Source: an uncultured Rickettsiales bacterium (GTDB taxonomy: Bacteria; Pseudomonadota; Alphaproteobacteria; Rickettsiales; CANDYO01). Taken from it: a stretch of DNA of 64,000 nucleotides. A program made the position numbers and the translations under genes. Below, in pieces: positions 1,665-29,117 of this stretch. The stretch's first letter is position 1. The number at the start of each line of letters is the position of its first letter. The notes under the pieces were generated by a model that was given only the letters and a program-made list of their open reading frames with translations, was not told where the DNA came from and did no database searches. The stretch is from the NCBI GenBank assembly GCA_964550685.1, contig CAZJZY010000003.1:27775-91774 (forward strand). Reading direction: 5' to 3'.

Positions 1665-2801
1665 ATGACAGCAATCAAACCTTTAATCTGTGGAATCTCT
1701 GGTCCATTTTTAACTGAAGAAGAGAAAGAGTTTTTATCTAGGATAAATCCTTTAGGTTTTGTGGTCTTTAAAAAAAATCTATTCGATAGAAAGCAAGCAC
1801 TTAAATTAACTAATGAACTAAGGGAAGTTTTAGGCAATAGAAAAGTTCCTATTTTAATTGATCAAGAAGGTGGAAAAGTTCTACGTTTAAGGGAAGAGCA
1901 ATGGAGACAACCACTTGCACCATTAGAGTTAGGAAAATTCGCTTATTTATCTTCAACTAACGCATTAGAAAAAACAAAGCGGCTAGTATACTTAAACGCT
2001 GTTTTAACAGCTATGGACATGCAAGAAATTGGTGTAAATGTAAATTGTGCGCCGGTTGCTGATTTACTATATCCTGGCGCTCATCATATCACTAGCTCTA
2101 GATCGTTTGGACCTAATAATTTTATTACTACAGAATTAGTAAAAGAAGCAGCTTCTGGAATGAAAACATCCTCGGTACAGCCCATAATGAAACATATGCT
2201 TGGCCAGGGCAGAGCAAATGTAGATAGTCATTTTGAAATGCCTGTGGTGGAAGCTTCTTTATCAGAATTGGAAGAAAATGATTTTAAAGTATTTGAGCTA
2301 GCCAAAAATATAGACTGGGGGATGCCAGCTCATATTGTTTATAAGAGTTTAGATCCAACTCAACCAGTAACTTATTCAAAAAAGATAGTAGATTATATTC
2401 GTAATAAAATAGGTTTCAATGGCATTTTAATTTCCGATTGTCTCACTATGAAAGCCTTACCTGAAACTTGGGGTCAAAAAGCTGCAAAATCTGTCAAAGC
2501 TGGCTTGGATTTAGTTTTATATGGCAGTTGTAATCATACAGTAATTCAAGAAATTGTGAATGCCATTCCAGAATTATCGGAAAGTATTTGGGAAAAAGTA
2601 GAAAATAGTTTTAGTAATTTAGAAAAACCAACTAACCTAAATTATCAAGATCTACTGCAAGAATTTGATGAATTATTAATTGAGTTAGAGAGCAGTTTAG
2701 CAAAGCAGAAAAAATCAAAAGATCTGCAATACATCTTGGCAGTTTTACAATCCAGAAACTTAAGTGACGCAGATTACTCGAGTCCATTATATAAAGCTTA
2801 A
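1665..2801 (+). CDS. nagZ: Beta-N-acetylhexosaminidase, glycoside hydrolase family 3 (NagZ-like)
   Basis: 378 aa with ILIDQEGGKVLRL, KHMLGQGRANVDSH and ISDCLTMKAL, the typical GH3/NagZ motifs. Confidence 0.85.
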   Translation: MTAIKPLICGISGPFLTEEEKEFLSRINPLGFVVFKKNLFDRKQALKLTNELREVLGNRKVPILIDQEGGKVLRLREEQWRQPLAPLELGKFAYLSSTNALEKTKRLVYLNAVLTAMDMQEIGVNVNCAPVADLLYPGAHHITSSRSFGPNNFITTELVKEAASGMKTSSVQPIMKHMLGQGRANVDSHFEMPVVEASLSELEENDFKVFELAKNIDWGMPAHIVYKSLDPTQPVTYSKKIVDYIRNKIGFNGILISDCLTMKALPETWGQKAAKSVKAGLDLVLYGSCNHTVIQEIVNAIPELSESIWEKVENSFSNLEKPTNLNYQDLLQEFDELLIELESSLAKQKKSKDLQYILAVLQSRNLSDADYSSPLYKA

Positions 2802-2813
2802 AGAAATTCTAAA

Positions 2814-3692
2814 ATGAAGCAAAATAATTTAATCGGCATCAGTTTCAAATTATTAAATTGCCTATTATTTCCCACCTTAAGTCTAGTAATTATTCATTGC
2901 GTGGCAACAATGCCTATAACTCAAGTATTATTTGCAAGGGTTACTTTAGGAGTAATTATTTGCGCAATCTATTTAAAAATAATTGGTCAGAAGATTCACT
3001 TTAATCTATCTCGTAAAGATTATTTCTTTTATATAATTAGAGCCAGCATAACCTTTGTGGCTATGAAATTCTGGGTATTAGCTATGCAGCGTGTGGGAGT
3101 CACTGAGGCTACAGCCTTAAGCTATACTGGACCTTTTTGGATATTTATAGCAGCTAGATATCTTATTGGCGAAGCATTTAGTTGGAGCAGCTTAATTGCT
3201 ATTATTGCTAATATGATTGGAGTTATTATAGTATTGCAGCCAAAGCTAGAAATTTTGAGCTGGCAGGGCGTTGGCGCTTCACTAGCTTCCCTTTTACTAT
3301 GGGTTTTATATGAGACTATTTGTAAAAAACAAACATCAAATCAACATTATATGCTGCAAACATTTTATGTTTCTCTCTTTGGAAGTATTATAATGGCACC
3401 TTTTGCATTTTACGAATGGCAACCGATTAATCTGGAAACCTTAGGAGTATTTACTCTTTTGGCAGCACTTGGAGTGGCCAATATCACTTCAATATTTATT
3501 GCCTATTCTTTTGCTCCGATGATGGCTATTTCTCCATTTAGCTACGCAAGATTAATTTTTACAGCCCTTCTAACCGCTTGGCTATATCATGCAAATCTTA
3601 GTGCTAATGTATTTATTGGGTCAGCCATTATCTTAGGAGTAAATTCTTATTTTGCTTATCAGATAAACACTAAAGTGTCCAGTAAAACTTAA
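2814..3692 (+). CDS. EamA/DMT-superfamily transporter (10-TM drug/metabolite exporter type)
   Basis: 292 aa, about 10 hydrophobic segments, two-EamA-repeat architecture. Substrate cannot be read from the sequence. Confidence 0.8.
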   Translation: MKQNNLIGISFKLLNCLLFPTLSLVIIHCVATMPITQVLFARVTLGVIICAIYLKIIGQKIHFNLSRKDYFFYIIRASITFVAMKFWVLAMQRVGVTEATALSYTGPFWIFIAARYLIGEAFSWSSLIAIIANMIGVIIVLQPKLEILSWQGVGASLASLLLWVLYETICKKQTSNQHYMLQTFYVSLFGSIIMAPFAFYEWQPINLETLGVFTLLAALGVANITSIFIAYSFAPMMAISPFSYARLIFTALLTAWLYHANLSANVFIGSAIILGVNSYFAYQINTKVSSKT

Positions 3693-4752
3693 CCCTTTGC
3701 TGGACTCCGCAAATAATATCATACGGAACATTATCGGTATGTTTTGCCACTTCTTCTATTGGCAGATCATCTCCCCATAAAGTGACGGGATCACCAACTT
3801 TAGCATCTGGACAGCTTCTAAGATCTATTGTTGCCATGTCCATTGAAACTCTACCAACTATCTGGCATTTTTTCCCGTTAACTAAAACCGGTGTGCCATC
3901 TTTAGCAGTTCTTGGATATCCATCACCATAACCCATTGCCACTACTCCAATAGGCATATCTTCTGGACAAGAAAATCTTGCCCCATAACCAATTTTTTTA
4001 TGCTTCTTAAAGTAAGAAACTTTAATTAATTTTGTCTGTAAAGTCATAACAGCCTTAAGACCTAAATCTGCCGCTGATCTATCAGCAAATGGAGAGATTC
4101 CATATAGAGATATACCTGGCCTTACCACATCATATAAATCATTGGTGAAGTTAAAAATAGCTCCAGAATTAGCAATAGTTTTAGGGCCAGAAAGCTTGGT
4201 GACAAAAGCTCTAAAATTCTTAAGTTGTACTTCATTGAGTGGATGATTTTTCTCCTCAGAGCAAGCTAAATGCGAGATAATTCCAATTGGCTGAATAACT
4301 TGTGGATTTTTACTTAATAATTCATAAGCTGATTCTGCTTCTTCTAGAGCAAAACCTAAACGTCCCATTCCAGTATCAATTTTAAGCCATATTTTAACTG
4401 GCTTCGGTAATTTTATTGATTGTAGCCAATCGATTTGCTGTTTCTCATGAAATATCAAATGAAAGTTTTGACATGAAGCAATTAGTAAATCATCTGGTTC
4501 AAAGGCTCCTGACATCAGAGTGATTGGAGCCTTAATATTAACTTTCCTTAAAGCCAAAGCCTCATCCACAGAAGCTACGCCAAAGCTGGCGACTTTACCA
4601 TCTAAGCGCATTGCTACAGAACGCAGGCCATGACCATATCCATTAGCTTTAATCATTGCAATCACCTCACGGCCCAGAGTTTGTTTTTTTATTACTTCAA
4701 GATTATGAAGGATATTTTCTGTTGATAATATTGCTATAGCTACTCTTGCCAT
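3670..4752 (-). CDS. alr: Alanine racemase
   Basis: 360 aa with the PLP-lysine motif AMIKANGYGHG and the C-terminal GYGDGYPR and VSMDM motifs. The 3' end overlaps the convergent EamA gene by 23 bp. Confidence 0.92.
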   Translation of the reverse strand: MARVAIAILSTENILHNLEVIKKQTLGREVIAMIKANGYGHGLRSVAMRLDGKVASFGVASVDEALALRKVNIKAPITLMSGAFEPDDLLIASCQNFHLIFHEKQQIDWLQSIKLPKPVKIWLKIDTGMGRLGFALEEAESAYELLSKNPQVIQPIGIISHLACSEEKNHPLNEVQLKNFRAFVTKLSGPKTIANSGAIFNFTNDLYDVVRPGISLYGISPFADRSAADLGLKAVMTLQTKLIKVSYFKKHKKIGYGARFSCPEDMPIGVVAMGYGDGYPRTAKDGTPVLVNGKKCQIVGRVSMDMATIDLRSCPDAKVGDPVTLWGDDLPIEEVAKHTDNVPYDIICGVQQRVKFYWTL

Positions 4753-4817
4753 TAATAATTTTCCTTAGGATATGTCTAGATTAAGGATAATATATTGAGC
4801 GCCTCAATGCAAGATCC

Positions 4818-4853
4818 ATAAAAAAAGGGCTTTTTACAAAGCCCTTTATTTTT
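4818..4853 (-). terminator. Rho-independent terminator (usable on both strands) downstream of ORF 4875..5288
   Basis: Perfect 10-bp stem aaagggcttt/aaagcccttt (4824..4847) with a 4-nt loop. It is followed by a T-run on the minus strand and by atttttg on the plus strand. Confidence 0.6.
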
Positions 4854-4874: not shown

Positions 4875-5288
4875 CTATTCAGGATGGCATATTCCATTAC
4901 AAACAATAATGCCATCTTCTGCATCTACTATAGTAACTAATGGACGAACAACCTCGTCTACTAATTCGATAAGCGCATTCTTCTGAAGATTTAGACAGTT
5001 CAAATAGGCAACGCTATTAGAATTTTTTAGATATACGCCCATTTCTTGAGTTGAACAGCCAGGAATTCTTGAACCACTCATGCCAATAATTTCTTGAAAG
5101 CCCTTAGCAAAAACATCATATTCTCTATGATTTAGCGAATCTAATATTGTTTTCTCTAAGCCCTTTTTTTCTTGATTTAAAGACCGACTATTACTTGATA
5201 AACCTTCTGTTGTAATAGAATGATAAACTTTCTCTCTTACATCTATATATTGCGCTACTAATTTTTTAATTTTATCTTCTCTAGACAT
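4875..5288 (-). CDS. Hypothetical protein (137 aa), no recognisable family
   Basis: Clean ORF with its own terminator and a 200-bp upstream region. No motif recognised. Confidence 0.5.
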   Translation of the reverse strand: MSREDKIKKLVAQYIDVREKVYHSITTEGLSSNSRSLNQEKKGLEKTILDSLNHREYDVFAKGFQEIIGMSGSRIPGCSTQEMGVYLKNSNSVAYLNCLNLQKNALIELVDEVVRPLVTIVDAEDGIIVCNGICHPE

Positions 5289-6954: not shown

Positions 6955-7274
6955 TAACCAATACGTAAGGCTGATATTAATGATGTCGATGTCGTAGTGG
7001 CTTTATCAGATCAAAAGCTTTGAGAGGCAATGAGGCACTGAGCTTGTGGATGTTTTAAGGAATGTTCCAAAAGATGTGGCACAGCTATTAGTGGTATGCG
7101 GTGCGCATGATGAACATAAACAGCAATTTTTAAAAGATATTGGATTATCTGTGGCTTCTAAATGATATGTTGGAGGTACATAAAAACATTGACGATGTAC
7201 ATTCATTGAAGGTATCATGATGCCTAAATTTGCAAATAAACACTTAGATAACCCGACGGGCTTAGGTTAAAATT

Positions 7275-8681
7275 ATGTTTGAATATATGAAAGAGATTAA
7301 TGTGTTGTTACCTGAAATATTCTTAGGCCTAGCAGCCTGTGGTATCTTGATGATAGGCGTATTCAGCAAATGCTTCAAATATGCTAATTTACTTTTGGCC
7401 ATAACTTTTTCTATAGCTATATATTTTCTATTAGCTAAAGTTCCAAATGATGCATTAGTTTTTGATGGTTTGTTTAAAATTACCGGATTAATTAAGCTTC
7501 TAAAATTAATGGTTTTGGTTTCTGCTATTTTTTACGCCATTTTAAGTGGTAAAAAACAATCAGATTTATGCTCAATTACAAGGACTGATCTTTTTGAGTT
7601 TCCAGTATTAATTATGCTAGCAGTAACCGGAATGTTATTGCTGCTTTCTGCTAATAACTTCTTAAGCTTCTACGTGTCTTTAGAGCTGCAAAGCCTCTCT
7701 TTATATGTGTTGGCTGCATTTGAAAGAGATGACAGCAAATCTTCCGAAGCTGGTCTAAAGTATTTTATTTTAGGATCTTTCGCTTCTGGCTTATTATTAT
7801 TTGGTATTTCGCTTATCTATGGCTTTACAGGTAATTTAGATTTTGAGAGCCTACAAATGCTTTTAAACAATAATTCAAGCAGCAATATCGCCCTTGGGGT
7901 AATTATTGGCATAATTATGTTCCTAATTGGAATGTTCTTTAAAGTTTCTGCAGCGCCATTCCATATGTGGACTCCAGATGTATACCAAGGCTCACCTACA
8001 ATCGTCACTAGTTTTTTTGCAACAATTGCTAAAGTTGCCACTGTTGGAGTATTGCTAAGAATAACTTCTAACATATTACCAGGTTGGAAAGCAGAACTTC
8101 AAACTATTTTTATTCTAATCACCTGTATTTCAGTATTAGTCGGCTCTATTGGCGCCCTTAAACAAAATAACTTAAAAAGATTATTAGCTTATAGTTCTAT
8201 AGGTCATGTAGGCTATATGGTACTTGCAATTGCTACATTCATTAACGATTTTAGCGTGATAATCTATCTGGGGATTTATGTTACTATGACTTTAGGTGTA
8301 TTTACTATAATCATGAATATTAAATCCGATGGAAAAGATCTTATTGAAATTCAAGATTTGGCTGGGATGTCTAAAGAACATCCTTTGATCGCTGGAGCTA
8401 TGGCAGTATTTATGTTCTCGCTCGCTGGCATTCCTCCATTCGCTGGTTTTTTTGCTAAGTTTTATGTCTTCAGTACAGCTTTAAATGCAGGATTATATAT
8501 AGCTGTATTATTTAGTATGGTTGCAGCAGTTATTGCGGCTTATTATTATTTGCGAATTGTAAAAATAATGTACCTAGATGCTCCAGTAAACAAATTCAGC
8601 AATGAGATGACATATGGAACTATGCTTATTATCATAATTCTTGTGTTGTTTAACTTATTCTATATACTCTTCTCCTATTGA
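7275..8681 (+). CDS. nuoN: NADH-quinone oxidoreductase subunit N
   Basis: 468 aa with FHMWTPDVYQGSPT and LLAYSSIGHVGYM motifs typical of NuoN/ND2. Confidence 0.93.
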   Translation: MFEYMKEINVLLPEIFLGLAACGILMIGVFSKCFKYANLLLAITFSIAIYFLLAKVPNDALVFDGLFKITGLIKLLKLMVLVSAIFYAILSGKKQSDLCSITRTDLFEFPVLIMLAVTGMLLLLSANNFLSFYVSLELQSLSLYVLAAFERDDSKSSEAGLKYFILGSFASGLLLFGISLIYGFTGNLDFESLQMLLNNNSSSNIALGVIIGIIMFLIGMFFKVSAAPFHMWTPDVYQGSPTIVTSFFATIAKVATVGVLLRITSNILPGWKAELQTIFILITCISVLVGSIGALKQNNLKRLLAYSSIGHVGYMVLAIATFINDFSVIIYLGIYVTMTLGVFTIIMNIKSDGKDLIEIQDLAGMSKEHPLIAGAMAVFMFSLAGIPPFAGFFAKFYVFSTALNAGLYIAVLFSMVAAVIAAYYYLRIVKIMYLDAPVNKFSNEMTYGTMLIIIILVLFNLFYILFSY

Positions 8682-10397: not shown

Positions 10398-10913
10398 CTA
10401 AATAGTGGCTTTTAATAAAGATGATATTTGCGGTATATCTTTCAATTGCTCAACTATTAACTCTTCTCCAGCTTGGTTATTATTTATGATTCTTGCACCT
10501 TCCATAGGTTGAAAAAACTGCCTCATCGAAGAAGCGTAATCAGGCATAATCCAATCACCTCGCTTAACTAAGCGTTGATAAATAACTTCGTCATTAGCAT
10601 CTACTTGAAGAAATATCAATTCCTGCGAGGAAAAATGTTTTTGTATCGTTTCCCTATTTTTTTTACGATATAAAGCCTGGCTAATCACAAGATGTTGGTG
10701 CTTTGCATTAAGCCTTTCAATATTTGCTATAATATTAGATGTAAGATTTTCTAACATTCCTAAGGTGAATATTTTTTTCTCACTGACATATTGCTTCATG
10801 TCTCCTGAAAGCCATTGATCTGCATCCTCGTGATAAAAATTAAAGTACCTGCTTATAACTTTCCCAACATAAGTTTTACCAGATGCAGCTAAACCAAAAA
10901 CAACAATAATCAT
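10398..10913 (-). CDS. Small P-loop kinase (gluconokinase/shikimate-kinase-like AAA_33 type)
   Basis: 171 aa with an N-terminal Walker A, VVFGLAASGKTYVG. Substrate unknown. Confidence 0.6.
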   Translation of the reverse strand: MIIVVFGLAASGKTYVGKVISRYFNFYHEDADQWLSGDMKQYVSEKKIFTLGMLENLTSNIIANIERLNAKHQHLVISQALYRKKNRETIQKHFSSQELIFLQVDANDEVIYQRLVKRGDWIMPDYASSMRQFFQPMEGARIINNNQAGEELIVEQLKDIPQISSLLKATI

Positions 10914-15463: not shown

Positions 15464-15838
15464 ATGAGACACAAAAAAAAATCATTACGCAGCATAGATG
15501 ATTTTATTCATGTTGCAGAGAGTTGCCTTGAGATACAAAATAGGCAAAATCCACTGGAAATTGCTAATTTTATTGAAGATTTTCAAGAAGAATTAAGATC
15601 AGATACAACCGAACAAATGCAAACAGACAATAATCCTTATATGAGCAATAGCCCTAGTATGGATGATGATTTTTTAGGTGGAGTTAGCTCCTCTGCTCCC
15701 ATTCTTGAAAGTGAGAACTACCCCTCTCATTGGGAGAGAGATGTCCTCCCCTCTGAAGATTATTTAGATAAAGAAAGCAGAAAATTAAACTTAGAAACTC
15801 TTTTTTTTCCTTTAAAACTGAAAAAAACTAGTAAATAA
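15464..15838 (+). CDS. Hypothetical acidic protein (124 aa)
   Basis: Starts 12 nt after the acnA stop. Low-complexity acidic, Ser/Asp-rich centre. No family recognised. Confidence 0.45.
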   Translation: MRHKKKSLRSIDDFIHVAESCLEIQNRQNPLEIANFIEDFQEELRSDTTEQMQTDNNPYMSNSPSMDDDFLGGVSSSAPILESENYPSHWERDVLPSEDYLDKESRKLNLETLFFPLKLKKTSK

Positions 15839-15973
15839 ATATTTTTATTTAATTTTATTAAAAATTATTGCACTTGACTCTATTTCTTGGTTAGCTTATA
15901 TTAAAATATAAACTTGTTACCTGTTATATCTTTTGTAGTAATTAAAGAGAGCATAAATTTGTAGGCATTCCTA

Positions 15974-16756
15974 ATGAATTCAATAAAAACAAAAATATTA
16001 ATTACTTTAATTGCCTTTCTATGTACTTCATGTGCAAATGTTAACAATGCTAAAATTGACCTCAAAACATTAAACAGCAATCCGGACAAATTTGGCATTA
16101 CAGTTTTTAGAGCTATATATGTTAAAGAGGCTAAAATAGTTGATGCATTTGAAAACAATCAAGCATTACCAAAACAAGAATTAAGTAGCGTCTATATTAA
16201 TGTCAAAAAGAACATTACTCCAGGAGAAAATAACAAGAAAGAAGAATATATAATTAGCCCAACTATGACTGAGGAATCCCCAGAACATCAAAAATTATTT
16301 ATTACCACTTCATACAATGAGAAAGATGAAAAAGTTATCAGTATAAATCCTGACTATTTTTATGCTGTAAAAATGCTTCCTGAGGGAAATTATTATGTAA
16401 ATTCGATAATAATACATAAGGGTATTATACGCCTTGAACAAAATTTTGATATTAAAAACTCTCCAATCAGCTTTAGTGTAAAAGCTAATAAAATTAATTA
16501 CTTAGGTGATCTATTTTTATTTGCCCCCGAAAAAGTTAGCACTATGTTGCCAGCTTATAAATTAAAAACAAAGCTTTTTAATAAAGAAACTGAGACACAA
16601 GACTTTCTTAGACAGTACCATCCTAAAATAGATTTGCTTTTTTATAATAATTTAATTAATAATAAAAAAGATGAGATAACATTAGATTATGTAGACACTA
16701 TACATGGTGGACTTTTAGGTAATATAATCTCTTCAGCTATTGACAGTACATTCTAA
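15974..16756 (+). CDS. Hypothetical lipoprotein (260 aa)
   Basis: N-terminal signal peptide with a lipobox-like LITLIAFLCTSC. No family recognised. Confidence 0.55.
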   Translation: MNSIKTKILITLIAFLCTSCANVNNAKIDLKTLNSNPDKFGITVFRAIYVKEAKIVDAFENNQALPKQELSSVYINVKKNITPGENNKKEEYIISPTMTEESPEHQKLFITTSYNEKDEKVISINPDYFYAVKMLPEGNYYVNSIIIHKGIIRLEQNFDIKNSPISFSVKANKINYLGDLFLFAPEKVSTMLPAYKLKTKLFNKETETQDFLRQYHPKIDLLFYNNLINNKKDEITLDYVDTIHGGLLGNIISSAIDSTF

Positions 16757-16839
16757 GTACTTAACAGATAAAGTATATTCATAAAATAAATTAAAAATAA
16801 TTTCTAGAAATTAGTTTATTCTCAAAATTTAAGGTGGAA

Positions 16840-16872
16840 TAATATAAATTCCCCTAGAAAATATCCAGGGGA
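16840..16872 (-). terminator. Candidate intrinsic terminator of the rpsB-tsf unit
   Basis: GC-rich 6-bp stem tcccct/agggga (16850..16872) about 15 nt after the tsf stop, followed on the minus strand by atttatatt. Confidence 0.4.
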
Positions 16873-16887
16873 TAGGGACTGTATAAC

Positions 16888-17811
16888 TTAATTAGTCATT
16901 GAAGCAACTTCAGCAGCAAAATCTGTCTGAGTACGCTCAATTCCTTCACCAAGTTCATATCTTATAAATGCTTTAAGAGTTATAGATGCGCTAATTTCTT
17001 TAGCAGCCTCTGCTAGAACTTGAGAAATAGGAGTTTTATTATCCATAACAAAAATTTGCTCAAGCAATACTGTTTCTTGATAATATTTCTTTACTCTTCC
17101 TTCAACCATTTTTTCAATTATATTTTCAGGCTTTCCAGAAGCCCTCGCTTGCTCAGAGAAAATTTGCTTCTCACGCTCTAAAGCTTCTGGGTTAACTGAA
17201 GTGATGTCCAAACTTTCAGGGCGGGCAGCGGCAACATGCATAGCAATACGCTTACCTAAGTCTAATAACTTATTTTTATCGCCAGTTGATTCTAATGCAA
17301 CCAACACGCCAATTTTTCCTAAGCCGTCAGAAATAGCATTGTGAACATAAGATGAAACTACGCCTTGATCTACATTGAGATAATTAACTCTACGTAAATT
17401 CATATTTTCGCCAATAACCGCAATATGATCTGTAATAGATTCAGAGATCGTTTGTGATCCTTCAGGATATTTAGCGTTTTTTAGTGCTTCAATATCTTTA
17501 TTGCTGTCCATCGCAACTTTAACAATGTTACGAGCTAAAGTCTGGAATTTATCATTTCTAGCTACAAAGTCAGTTTCAGCATTTAATTAAACAACCGCTG
17601 CCCTATTTCCATCTACTGCAACTGCTACCAATCCCTCTGCCGCTTCACGACCAGATTTTTTAGCTGCTGCTGACAAACCTTTCTTACGCAACCAATCAAC
17701 CGCTTCTTCAAAAACGCCATTGCATTCAACTAACGCTTTTTTACAATCCATCATTCCTGCACCAGATTTCTCACGTAATTCTTTGACTAATCCTGCTGTA
17801 ATTTCAACCAT
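16888..17811 (-). pseudogene. tsf: Elongation factor Ts interrupted by one in-frame TAA (codon 75). Either an apparent pseudogene, a sequencing error, or a read-through gene
   Basis: ORFs 17587..17811 (UBA-like N-terminus [27 protein letters not shown]) and 16888..17511 are in the same frame. Translating across 17587..17589 gives ...NRAAVV*LNAETDFVARNDKFQ..., colinear with a roughly 307-aa EF-Ts. Confidence 0.85.
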
Positions 17812-17812
17812 A

Positions 17813-18709
17813 TTATACCTCTTTTTTCTTTGTCGTTGCCTTTTTAACTACAGGCTTATCTTCTTTGTTTTCTTCTAATTTCTTAACAGAAGTTTTTGTG
17901 GATTTCTTCTTCTCATCTTTATTTTCAGCCTTATTAAGCTGAAGCACACCAGATAAATCAGCCATAGCGCCAATATCAACACCTGAAGCCACTAAAGATT
18001 CTTGTAGACCATATAAAATAGTATCAGCCACTAACCGACAATATAACTTAATTGCCCTAGTTGCATCATCATTACCTGGAATAGGATATGTAATATGATC
18101 TGGATTAGAATTACTATCCAAAATTGCGATTACAGGAATACCAAGCTTTTTAGCTTCTTGAATAGCAAGTTCTTCCATATTAGTGTCAATTACAAATAAT
18201 AAATCAGGAACACCTCCCATTTCTCTAATTCCACCAAGGGATTTTTCTAATTTTTCGATCTTACGAGTGATATCTAATCTTTCTTTTTTGGTGAATTTTA
18301 ATTTGTCTGAGTTTTCATCTGCAATGTCAGCATCAGCTATAGATTTTTCTAATTCATGTAATTTTTTAATAGAGCGATTAATGGTAGGCCAATTAGTTAA
18401 CATTCCACCTAACCAACGGTGATTTACATAATATTGACCACATCTTTTAGCTTCTTCAGAAATAACGTCTGAAGCTTGCATTTTTGTACCAACAAATAAG
18501 ATGCGACCATTGCTTTTAGATACATCATATAGTTTTTCTAGAGCTCCATGTAATAAAGGTAAAGTTTGTTGCAAATCTATAATATGCACACCATCTTTTA
18601 TTCCATAAAGATATGAACTCATTTTTGGGTTCCAACGCATAGTTTTATGACCAAAGTGAACACCAGCTTCAATTAATTCGCTAATGGTAATAGAGGGAAG
18701 TTTTCTCAT
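17813..18709 (-). CDS. rpsB: 30S ribosomal protein S2 with a Lys-rich C-terminal tail
   Basis: 298 aa with [25 protein letters not shown] and [13 protein letters not shown] motifs. Immediately upstream of tsf. Confidence 0.96.
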
Positions 18710-18933
18710 TAAATAAGTCTCCGGTTAAAGTTTAAACATCCATAAAACATCATTAATCTAAAAACTAGACTAACACTTTAAATATAAGGTTTCATGGGCT
18801 AGATTTATGCTATAAATTTAGCATAGGACGATAAGTTAATATAACCTGATGTTCTTGTCAAGAAAAACCGAATTTGCTAAGATTTAAGAAAAAGATTCTA
18901 TAAACACATAAATCTTCAGCTATCAATGAAAAT

Positions 18934-18972
18934 AAACTACTCGGTCCTTTGGGTACGAGAGTAGTTTATTTT
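18934..18972 (+). terminator. Orphan terminator-like hairpin in the rpsB/lysE divergent intergenic region
   Basis: 9-bp outer stem aaactactc/gagtagttt plus an inner gtcc/ggg(t)ac stem, followed by tttatttt. No annotated gene ends here on either strand. Confidence 0.35.
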
Positions 18973-19150
18973 ACCAGAAGCCCCTAAAATGGTAATATAT
19001 AATACCAGTGACAAATCCTCCCTCCAAAAAATACAAATTATAACAGATCGATAGTTATGTATTACACATAGCGATATAAATTTTAAATTGACTTCCTATA
19101 TAAACTCCCTAATTATCTGATATAAATCATTGCTTATAATTGGAGAATTA

Positions 19151-19762
19151 ATGAGCTTTTATTCCGTTGCTTTTCTACAAGGACTAACTCTTTGTTTTAG
19201 TTTGATTATAGCTATAGGAATACAAAATTCTTTTGCCTTAAAACAAGGAATTCTAAAAAGCTATAATCTTTTAATTGCCACTATCTGCTCTCTAGGTGAT
19301 GCAATTCTAATTATCGTTGGAGTTTATGGATTTGGTAAAATATTAGCTACTCACCAACTTCTTTTAGATTTTTTTTATTGGGGAGGTGTTATATTTTTAT
19401 TTGGTTATGGACTAACTTCTTTCTATTCTGCATTTAAAAGTAATAGATTAAATTTAGATAGCCAACCTAGAATCTTAGATTTTAAGGAAGTATTAACTAA
19501 AACCTTAGTAATAACTTTTTTAAATCCAAATGCTTATCTTGATACTTGTATTTTAATCGGCAGTATCAGTACTCAAGTTTTAGAAGAGGAAAAATTTTCA
19601 TTCACTTTAGGGGCCATCTCAGCTTCGTGTATTTGGTTTTTCTTGCTGAGCTTTTGCTCTAGATTTTTGAAGCCATTATTTGAAAAACCAATCTCTTGGA
19701 AAATTCTTGATTTTATGATAGGCTGTTTAATGTTTGCAATAGCCATATCTCTTATCAAATGA
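19151..19762 (+). CDS. LysE/ArgO-family amino-acid exporter
   Basis: About 203 aa and 6 TM segments with an N-terminal FLQGLTLCFSLIIAIGIQN motif. ATG at 19151 is preceded by ggaga; the track ORF begins at an upstream TTG (19130). Confidence 0.8.
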   Translation: MSFYSVAFLQGLTLCFSLIIAIGIQNSFALKQGILKSYNLLIATICSLGDAILIIVGVYGFGKILATHQLLLDFFYWGGVIFLFGYGLTSFYSAFKSNRLNLDSQPRILDFKEVLTKTLVITFLNPNAYLDTCILIGSISTQVLEEEKFSFTLGAISASCIWFFLLSFCSRFLKPLFEKPISWKILDFMIGCLMFAIAISLIK

Positions 19763-21248: not shown

Positions 21249-22739
21249 TTAAGATTGCTCTTTCATTTTTGCTTCAAATAATTTACTTAAGGCAAATACT
21301 GCAGCAATCCAACAAACCATAATTGCTAAGAAAATATATAAAATATCCTCGGTTAAATTAGTTAAATTAGCACCGGGAATGAAAGCTAATAGAAGATATT
21401 GAATGATAGCGCCACCTGATTTTCCAAGTCTTGCTCCAGTAACGTCAACTACTGCTTTACCCTTAACTTTTAACTCATTATCAAGAGGAATATAACTCAT
21501 TTCCTTAGTTGGATCAAATAAAGAGTATTTTGTAGATTTGCTCAATATATTTTGAGCAGCTCCCATAATAACAGCCATCATTAAAGAAGTACTACCTATT
21601 AAAGCTAAGCTTGCCTCGAACATATCTCCAGCTAAAATTAGCAAGAAAAACAATACTCCAGTTACTAAAATCATTATAGGAGTTAAAATTGCACTGGTGC
21701 GCCATTTACAAGCCCTTAGAATATAAACACCGACAATCATTCCAAACATTGAAGTCCAGCCAGTCCACATCTGGAAGCTACCCATAAATGCACTATAGTC
21801 ATTTTGAATGGGGAATTGAATTTTCATTTGATTCTTCCATACACCCTCAACCAAGTTAATGCTGATGCCATAAGCTAATACTAACACAGCAATCAAGCCG
21901 ATATATTTCGAAGTAAAAATATATTTAAAACTATCAATTAAAGACATTTTCACTTTATTTTTTTTCTTCTTTTCTGCCGTAGCATCAAAAAATCTTGCAT
22001 CAGTTAGCACAAATTTGTTCATATACCAAAAAATTGCCATCATAACAATTCCAGCAACAAATACTGAAATCATCAATACTTGCAAAGTATCTTGCCAAGC
22101 CTGAGATTGATCAGCTTGCATTGCATTTGTTATTGAAAAATGCTTTTGCACAAATCCTGCAGTTATAAGACCAATCTGTCCAATAGCGCCAAAAATAGTA
22201 TAAGTGTTTTTTGCTTCACTAACTTTATAAATATGATTAGCAAATTGCCAGAACATTAGTGAAAGCATAGCGCTTCCCCATAATTCAGACATAATATAAA
22301 ATAGAGATGCTCCCCAATTAGAAATCATTAAAAGTGGGTACTTAAATTTAGGATATTCTACGATTGCATTGCTTAAATCTATATTCAATGCGTCTTTCAT
22401 TGGATAAACTAAAAATGCATATCCCATAAAAAACGTAATAAAAAATAGAGTCATCAAGTAAAAAAGCCTCTCACGATTTAGAACATTCGCTAATTTAGAA
22501 TACACTATCATGAAAACAACAGCAGATGGAAATACGCCGAATAGTTTTACGGCACTAATAATTTCAGCTCCCACAACTGGAATTAGAAGAGTATCTTTAG
22601 CTCCTCTTAATACACTATAAACAAAAATTACAATTAGAAATATTAAAGAGGTTGGAAGAACCTTCTTCAGAATATATTCCTGGTTCTCTTTAAAACTATT
22701 ATAATATGACTTTAAATAACTAATAAAACCTAATTTCAT
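21249..22739 (-). CDS. tlc: ATP/ADP translocase (nucleotide transporter, NTT/Tlc family)
   Basis: About 496 aa and 12 TM segments with the KVLPxxLxFLIVxFxYSxLRxxKD N-terminal signature and KSTKYSLFDPTKEMSYIPLDxELKxKGKAxVD. The start is probably the second Met (22739), which is preceded by gaggaa. Confidence 0.9.
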   Translation of the reverse strand: MKLGFISYLKSYYNSFKENQEYILKKVLPTSLIFLIVIFVYSVLRGAKDTLLIPVVGAEIISAVKLFGVFPSAVVFMIVYSKLANVLNRERLFYLMTLFFITFFMGYAFLVYPMKDALNIDLSNAIVEYPKFKYPLLMISNWGASLFYIMSELWGSAMLSLMFWQFANHIYKVSEAKNTYTIFGAIGQIGLITAGFVQKHFSITNAMQADQSQAWQDTLQVLMISVFVAGIVMMAIFWYMNKFVLTDARFFDATAEKKKKNKVKMSLIDSFKYIFTSKYIGLIAVLVLAYGISINLVEGVWKNQMKIQFPIQNDYSAFMGSFQMWTGWTSMFGMIVGVYILRACKWRTSAILTPIMILVTGVLFFLLILAGDMFEASLALIGSTSLMMAVIMGAAQNILSKSTKYSLFDPTKEMSYIPLDNELKVKGKAVVDVTGARLGKSGGAIIQYLLLAFIPGANLTNLTEDILYIFLAIMVCWIAAVFALSKLFEAKMKEQS

Positions 22740-22875
22740 TGAATTTCCTCGTAATAAAATTTTGAACAATGTATTATATAATATTATTATAATTAGTCAA
22801 TAAAATATTAACAAAAATTTATATGCTAAACCTAAAAATATTATTTACGGGAAAGGAGAGGTGTATTTCTACATA

Positions 22876-22948: not shown

Positions 22949-24268
22949 TTAGAATTTAACTCTGGTACCAAGAATGAACACAGTAGCTCTTTGTTTTGTT
23001 TCACCATTGATAACTTTCTTTGGTTTAACAGTTGCCATTGTTACTTCAGCAAATGGAGTCATACCAGGAGCTACAGCATAGTCTGCACCTAAAGATACAG
23101 CTGATGTCTTAACTAAAGGATATGAGTTTGTATCACCTTGAGCTGCTTTCTTGTTGCCTTTTTTACCATATAAGTAAGTTAAGCTTGTTGACATAGGTCC
23201 ATTTTTGTAACCTAAACCAGCTGTATACCAGTAAGATGTAAAGTCAGCTTGTTTTGGAGCTAAGCTCTTACCATCATGAGCATAAGATAATGCTGCTGAG
23301 AAACCTTGATATTCAACTACAGTACCAACAGAGTAAGTTTTTAGATCATTTCTAGCTTTTGTAGAAGTATCATACTGCACATTGCTTAAGCTGTAATTTG
23401 CAGATGCAGTGGTTGTAGTAGGATTACCATTAGCATCAACTGTAGTTAAAGTTATAAGACCTTCATCACGAGTATTGAAAGCTTTCTGATCAGCTTTAGC
23501 AAAATCACCAGCTGCACTGAACATTACATTAACGTCATCAAAGCTGTTTTTGTAATTTAATGCCACAGAGAATAAATTCTTAGCTGCTAAAGGACGGCCT
23601 AAATATCTTTGACCATTATCCCTAGAATAACCTTGACCGCCATTATTTTCTAAGTCAGGAGCAAAAGACATACCCAATTGAGCGCCAGAAACACGTGGTG
23701 ACAAGTAAGTGATTTTTCTAGCGCTTTCTCCATAACCATCTAATCTGTTAGACAATGTGTCTGTGTCAAATACTGGAGCACTTCCTAATACTGTATTTTG
23801 ACGAACGTCAATAAATGTACCAAAATCACCAGCTACACCGCCTGTAGCTGAAGCGATAGTTCCAGCATCAACTGACATTAATTTGCTTGCTGCAAAGTTT
23901 GTACCCATTTGTACAGCACCAGCATCTGTGTTCATGTAAATATGTGAACGATCCATTCCTGAATCACTCATGCCGCTAGACAAGTTTGCAACTGTTTGTA
24001 AACGAACTACAGCGCCATATGTCATGCTATCATTTTTTCCTTCAGCTTTAATTGAAGCTTTGTTTGAAGTCATGAATGCTGATGAAGATTGGTTAGGGCT
24101 ATATGTGAATGATTTTTTGTGATCTCTATCACGTTTTACATAACCAGCTTCGAATTTACTGTTACCACCAACAGAAACTTGCATATCTCCGTTGCTAGAC
24201 ATATCAGCAGCCGAAGCTAAACTAGCAAAACCTACTAATGCTGTTGTGCATAATAAAATTTTTTTCAT
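22949..24268 (-). CDS. Outer-membrane porin (alphaproteobacterial general porin type)
   Basis: 439 aa with signal peptide MKKILLCTTALVGFASLASA, alternating beta-strand pattern and a C-terminal ...GTRVKF. Confidence 0.75.
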   Translation of the reverse strand: MKKILLCTTALVGFASLASAADMSSNGDMQVSVGGNSKFEAGYVKRDRDHKKSFTYSPNQSSSAFMTSNKASIKAEGKNDSMTYGAVVRLQTVANLSSGMSDSGMDRSHIYMNTDAGAVQMGTNFAASKLMSVDAGTIASATGGVAGDFGTFIDVRQNTVLGSAPVFDTDTLSNRLDGYGESARKITYLSPRVSGAQLGMSFAPDLENNGGQGYSRDNGQRYLGRPLAAKNLFSVALNYKNSFDDVNVMFSAAGDFAKADQKAFNTRDEGLITLTTVDANGNPTTTTASANYSLSNVQYDTSTKARNDLKTYSVGTVVEYQGFSAALSYAHDGKSLAPKQADFTSYWYTAGLGYKNGPMSTSLTYLYGKKGNKKAAQGDTNSYPLVKTSAVSLGADYAVAPGMTPFAEVTMATVKPKKVINGETKQRATVFILGTRVKF

Positions 24269-29013: not shown

Positions 29014-29117
29014 GATATAAATAATACTGTTTTTTATAATTTTCCATATTATAGTAGAACATCCAGTCTAATTTTAATCTATTAGTTTTGGACATTAATT
29101 ATAAAAAGGAGATTATT

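Follow-up and report, generated by a model that had tools for sequence, protein, structure and literature searches.

An in-frame TAA at the invariant Glu75 codon of tsf in a Rickettsiales contig most likely reflects an error in the sequence or a rare, defective allele

Introduction

Does an uncultured Rickettsiales bacterium live with a broken gene for the elongation factor EF-Ts, or is the break a property of its deposited DNA sequence? EF-Ts is normally indispensable, and the tsf gene found in a 64-kb stretch of DNA from such a bacterium (the whole stretch analysed, hereafter the window) is divided into two open reading frames (ORFs) by an in-frame TAA. A first-pass annotation of this DNA had offered three options for the stop codon: a base-call or assembly error, a very recent pseudogenisation with a second tsf copy elsewhere, or tolerated read-through. 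Here we compare the interrupted gene with protein family profiles, with its homologs, with an independently assembled contig from the same genomic region, and with similar defects in other assemblies. Taken together, these comparisons make an error in the sequence, or a rare allele that is defective, the most likely origin of the TAA and speak against new biology.

Results

A Single In-Frame TAA Divides an Otherwise Complete tsf Gene

The features of the tsf region are given below in window coordinates; L001 is a contig from another assembly that carries the intact allele and is described further down.

16888..17811, minus strand: tsf (EF-Ts), 307 codons plus stop, broken at codon 75; assigned by TIGR00116 and by alignment with 1EFU chain B
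17587..17589, minus strand: in-frame TAA at the codon of the invariant Glu75; GAA in L001, GAG in the relatives with 87% identity
17587..17811, minus strand: N-terminal fragment ORF (P0123), 74 aa, ending one codon before the Glu-Leu-Asn-x-Glu-Thr-Asp-Phe-Val segment
17512..17586, minus strand: codons 76-100 (25 codons), outside any ORF; their translation, LNAETDFVARNDKFQTLARNIVKVA, contains the EF-Tu-contacting TDFV motif
16888..17511, minus strand: C-terminal fragment ORF (P0064), 207 aa, starting at Met101 (MDSNKD)
17813..18709, minus strand: intact rpsB for ribosomal protein S2; one base separates its stop from the tsf ATG, and its protein and DNA are identical in L001
16850..16872, minus strand: terminator-like hairpin just past the tsf stop, followed by a T-rich tail; 9-pair stem with 5 G-C pairs, called by consensus match alone

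Both tsf fragments share one minus-strand frame, and their starts are 300 nt apart. When the gene is read through the TAA at 17589..17587, it comprises 308 codons including the terminal stop and specifies an EF-Ts of 307 aa that spans AAVV*LNAETDFVARNDKFQ. This repaired protein matched the tsf profile TIGR00116 over its full length (positions 1-291 of 293) with 315.6 bits, well above the curated cut-off of 104.05 bits. The 74-aa fragment scored 93.8 bits (positions 1-74) and thus stays below the cut-off, and the 207-aa fragment reached 179.8 bits over positions 106-291 only. The repaired protein also aligned end to end with the E. coli EF-Ts from the EF-Tu·EF-Ts complex (1EFU chain B; E=1.4e-62). 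Frame and profile match together bear out the earlier proposal that the two ORFs are colinear parts of one gene of about 307 codons. The integrity of the upstream rpsB, also claimed before, held up as well, since its product covered positions 2-223 of the 225 in TIGR01011 with 313.7 bits. The placement of tsf directly downstream of rpsB recurs in the three relatives with 87% identity (L082-L084).

Both truncated products, P0064 and P0123, are called proteins of one NCBI contig of 100,134 bp, and the stop is therefore also present in the deposited NCBI record. Among approximately 15 billion proteins, they were found only this once, on that single contig.

Glu75 and the Segment That Follows It Are Invariant

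To judge what the stop codon replaces, the position was examined in an alignment of homologs with 63-91% identity. The residue at codon 75 is Glu in every one of these 123 sequences, just as had been presumed for the residue preceding the (V/L)NxETDFVARN motif, and N77, E79, T80, D81, F82, V83, R85, and N86 are invariant in all 124 sequences. At the codon level, where a comparison with related strains had been proposed, codon 75 reads GAA in L001 and GAG in L082-L084. The TDFV segment contacts domain I of EF-Tu and displaces Mg2+ (PMC3747624, PMC9529903). Compared with the relatives of 87% identity, the tsf gene carries 88 synonymous and 41 nonsynonymous codon differences, a ratio that fits long-term purifying selection as judged from these codon counts.

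The Gene as Written Is Very Unlikely to Yield a Complete EF-Ts

Between the stop and Met101, none of the 25 sense codons is an in-frame ATG, GTG, or TTG. Since no in-frame start precedes codon 101, no possible product carries codons 76-100 with the TDFV motif, and only a sense reading of codon 75 would bring the intact TDFV segment into an expressed product. The region upstream of the Met101 ATG (AACATTGTTAAAGTTGCG) shows no obvious Shine-Dalgarno sequence. The first-pass annotation had argued that a restart at the next ATG, 25 codons downstream, would drop TDFV and that the two pieces are unlikely to work as drawn; both statements stand, with the TDFV segment present in neither fragment. Because Glu75 is found in 123 of 123 homologs and the stop strips TDFV from every product, a cell carrying this allele would lack functional EF-Ts.

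We also looked for signs that the stop might be decoded. TAA terminates 36 of the 51 ORFs of at least 100 aa in the window, rpsB and tsf among them, and no other in-frame TAA was found in window genes with full-length family matches. Reassignment of TAA as a sense codon is rejected, given that TAA is the dominant terminator. The stop stands in the context UAA-U, and a U at position +4 is described as lowering read-through in E. coli (PMC5289835). The window contains no suppressor tRNA; its tRNAs, Glu(UUC) and Leu(UAA), do not read UAA. A search for a second tsf, which the earlier annotation had wanted to be genome-wide, was run on the 64-kb window, and no second copy was present there.

An Intact Allele Differs From the Window by One Internal Base

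Through an exact match of the neighbouring S2 protein, we found L001, a contig of 2,966 bp in the Logan assembly of run ERR15459718. In an ungapped comparison, it corresponds to window positions 16540..19505 and deviates only at its own terminal base and at window position 17589. There, L001 has a G (GAA, Glu) where the window has a T (TAA) on the minus strand, which on the plus strand is a change from C to A, and an intact EF-Ts of 307 aa is called on L001. Within tsf, the two sequences show neither synonymous nor other nonsynonymous differences, and there is no second lesion. A single GAA to TAA substitution, as deduced earlier from the motif, is hence what the comparison reveals, all other non-terminal bases of the 2,966 being the same.

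The mismatch at the terminal base of L001 falls on window position 19505, where the window has a T on the plus strand; this is the first base of codon 126 in the ORF for a LysE-family protein (19130..19762). It is either an artefact of the contig tip or a true strain SNP.

Further contigs of run ERR15459718 were sought by exact look-up of Lnt, SodB, MipZ, HU, and the NDUFS4-like protein, and none was found. The absence of these five proteins suggests that the run represents a low-coverage or slightly different population. If ERR15459718 is a different, low-coverage sample containing a sister strain, the T in the window could be a real strain-specific allele. For sister-strain DNA, exact look-ups of the two tsf fragments gave no hit, a contig scan gave only relatives with at most 64% identity, and a 33-mer specific to the strain, in which the variable base was set to N, had no match in JGI metagenomes. 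Since the look-ups, the contig scan, and the 33-mer search yielded no other overlap, L001 is the only independent one. Our literature search found no mention of the run accession.

Stops at the Same Codon Occur Sporadically in Unrelated Assemblies

We scanned 241 million metagenome records for a TAA or TAG directly before x-N-x-E-T-D-F-V-x-R-N and obtained eight matches, which are raw counts and not a rate: three true stops at the same codon, four intron-like cases, and one frameshift. The true stops at the Glu codon are a TAA in L087 (13307-13342, plus strand), a TAG in L089 (1101-1136, minus strand), and a TAG in L091 (2022-2057, plus strand). Each of them interrupts an otherwise intact tsf gene, and they stem from unrelated high-GC Alphaproteobacteria that do not form one clade. 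Most simply, these stops are sporadic assembly errors or rare alleles. With three cases at the same Glu codon, isolated G-to-T nonsense changes recur as a background of assembly data.

The intron-like cases, L085 (2369-2404, minus strand), L090 (314-349, minus strand), L092 (1766-1801, plus strand), and L086 (811-846, minus strand), consist of non-coding upstream DNA that ends in TAG and is followed by an exon reading (V/M)NSETDFVARN. Judged by this sequence pattern, they look like eukaryotic organellar EF-Ts genes with an intron boundary at this codon. Apart from these matches, a very close EF-Ts relative (P0124; 257 aa, from an ENA contig of 3,610 bp) runs out of frame after GKPENIIEKM; its frameshifted C-terminus is another tsf lesion private to one assembly.

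Cooley and Wright (2024, BMC Genomics, PMC11017572) show that internal-stop pseudogenes in bacterial assemblies are in many cases artefacts and that genomes which are nearly identical often do not share them.

No Other Disrupted Gene Was Found in the Surrounding Window

The window has a G+C content of 33% and is 92% coding. A further 59 ORFs were compared with Pfam or NCBIfam, and 49 of them match families essentially end to end; among the remainder, two have weak matches below the curated cut-off and eight have no family match and are hence not judgeable. Of the roughly 60 ORFs examined, tsf alone was found to be disrupted, and no ORF resembles half of its neighbour. General genome decay is thus not the cause of the stop, as no other gene is disrupted in the 64-kb window.

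Several adjacent ORF pairs, lying in one frame or overlapping, were considered as candidates for hidden splits (24676/25072, 30180/30457, 51572/52398, 27628/28422, 54455/55529, 1665/2814, and 10398/11025, besides others). Wherever both members matched a family, they are distinct genes, and this holds for all adjacent same-strand pairs of that kind. Three pair members score below the curated cut-off (1665..2801, 2814..3692, and 10398..10913); the other matched members do so end to end. The ORFs without a Pfam match (111-439 aa) are located at 4875..5288, 15464..15838, 15974..16756, 22949..24268, 29088..30071, 35523..35858, 42847..43578, and 46378..47163. The longest stretches devoid of an ORF of at least 60 aa are 42115..42614 (500 nt) and 18710..19129 (420 nt), and neither of them has a match to Rfam at the gathering threshold.

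Markers of lifestyle, together with a chemotaxis receptor, are encoded at 21249..22769 (minus strand), 59618..63913 (minus strand), 43591..45324 (plus strand), and 33942..35495 (plus strand). The markers are a TLC ATP/ADP translocase, a giant VirB6/TrbL-like protein of 1431 aa, and an ankyrin-repeat protein, and these predicted products point to an obligate-intracellular life of this uncultured, Rickettsiales-like alphaproteobacterium. The methyl-accepting chemotaxis receptor, which has CHASE5 and HAMP domains, is less expected in such a bacterium. Metagenome-assembled genomes labelled "Rickettsiales bacterium" are the nearest named relatives.

The relatives keep the rpsB-tsf-aconitase neighbourhood, and their tsf always has 307 codons. 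Two ORFs that lie between aconitase and tsf in the window (15464..16756) are absent at the matching position in L082 and L084. In the relative with a genome of 1.55 Mb (L083), IS1-family fragments (InsA zinc ribbon, DDE_Tnp_IS1) at 4429-4845 and 7038-7376 flank rpsB-tsf; they are missing from two other contigs with identical tsf.

Discussion

Our analysis reveals a single-base lesion in tsf for which an intact allele exists in independent data, with no other damage in the gene or its neighbourhood and with none of the properties of programmed recoding. The explanation that we favour, with a probability of just under 60%, is that an error of sequencing, assembly, or consensus calling entered the deposited, metagenome-derived contig. 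The G-to-T discrepancy at 17589 would then be one base private to this contig, and the organism itself would carry GAA (Glu75) and produce an ordinary EF-Ts of 307 aa from its rpsB-tsf operon. That the T is such an artefact, and not a rare allele that truly exists, is our inference. Of all single-base changes that could occur in the 2,966 nt shared with L001, about 3% create a nonsense codon in rpsB or tsf; accordingly, one nonsense hit is unremarkable for an error that no selection has sieved and unexpected for a variant exposed to selection, which should purge changes of this kind. Two points speak against the error: the rest of the window is not noisy and contains no other internal stops or frameshifts, and GC-to-TA changes are a common type of genuine mutation in AT-rich intracellular bacteria.

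The same clean window, which argues against a generally error-prone assembly, lends some weight to a real nonsense allele that is either very recent or a minor, segregating variant written into the consensus by the assembler; its carriers would be unfit or inviable, and the population would keep GAA. Both alleles are public on otherwise identical sequence, the mismatch at 19505 may be true strain variation, and deleterious mutations build up in intracellular bacteria whose populations are small. Nevertheless, given an indispensable EF-Ts and the invariance of Glu75 and TDFV, such an allele should not reach majority frequency in a consensus, and the gene bears no trace of further decay. We therefore regard a real nonsense allele as the second most likely reading, well behind an error but clearly worth consideration. 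That the affected gene is a newly decaying duplicate, with an intact tsf elsewhere, draws on the fact that only 64 kb of the genome were covered. Yet the stop sits in the canonical copy, whose rpsB-tsf-aconitase neighbourhood is conserved in relatives; this copy has no other lesion, and no second tsf accompanies it in the window. Moreover, the genome of the nearest complete relative measures about 1.55 Mb, a size at which duplicated housekeeping genes would be unusual. The syntenic position and the absence of other lesions make a decaying duplicate unlikely, and we grant it a slim chance. Should the TAA be real and fixed, with the strain surviving on little or no EF-Ts, EF-Tu would have to release its GDP spontaneously, UAA would have to be read through in traces, or the task would fall to an exchange factor from the host or to a second one; we view this as a very slim chance. 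Least probable of all is a functional stop, be it through read-through, a suppressor tRNA, a split protein, or TAA as sense. The perfectly colinear frame across the TAA is what one would expect of it, but the stop is absent from the identical flanks of L001 and from all 123 homologs, the comparable stops in L087, L089, and L091 belong to unrelated lineages and not to a clade, no ochre suppressor is among the window tRNAs, and the lack of a start before codon 101 leaves TDFV in no product. The UAA-U context, the missing conservation of the stop, and the normal use of TAA as terminator (it ends 36 of the 51 ORFs with 100 aa or more) render tolerated read-through very unlikely. Of the three options put forward in the first-pass annotation, read-through has thus largely lost its footing and the duplicate is improbable, and the choice has narrowed to an error or a recent or minor nonsense allele.

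The stop matters mainly for annotation, since the deposited record now lists truncated "proteins" of 74 and 207 aa where one essential translation factor belongs. A split tsf annotation lowers the apparent completeness of the genome and could wrongly suggest that an intracellular lineage has lost tsf. The locus is correctly annotated as one tsf gene that has GAA at codon 75 and in which a one-base error is suspected. Were the TAA true and fixed, it would amount to natural dispensability of EF-Ts in a genome short of extreme reduction. As it stands, the tsf gene is an ordinary one, and its one-base defect is probably not real.

Once repaired, the gene product resembles the canonical bacterial EF-Ts (TIGR00116/PF00889; 1EFU) in its full length, its invariant NxETDFVxRN motif, and its rpsB-tsf operon; it differs from it in that the gene as encoded is cut at codon 75, with TDFV in neither ORF. 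The locus shares with programmed read-through or recoding an in-frame stop and a colinear frame on either side, but the stop is not conserved, it stands in the strong UAA-U context, and neither a recoding signal nor, among the window tRNAs, a suppressor was found. Host-restricted bacteria such as Rickettsia and Mycobacterium leprae contain many recent nonsense pseudogenes, typically in dispensable functions. The single-step nonsense change in an AT-rich intracellular bacterium is reminiscent of these pseudogenes, whereas the lesion described here is solitary, affects a core translation factor, and is missing from an otherwise identical contig. A further parallel is provided by the spurious stops reported by Cooley and Wright (PMC11017572), with which the tsf stop has in common that it is a single internal stop in an otherwise intact, conserved gene that should be indispensable and that a near-identical, independent assembly lacks it. 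The spurious stops in that study were tied to a raised pseudogene count in poor assemblies, while the 64 kb studied here are otherwise unbroken; with no other broken gene in this stretch, an error at the tsf stop would stand alone and would not point to a bad assembly overall.
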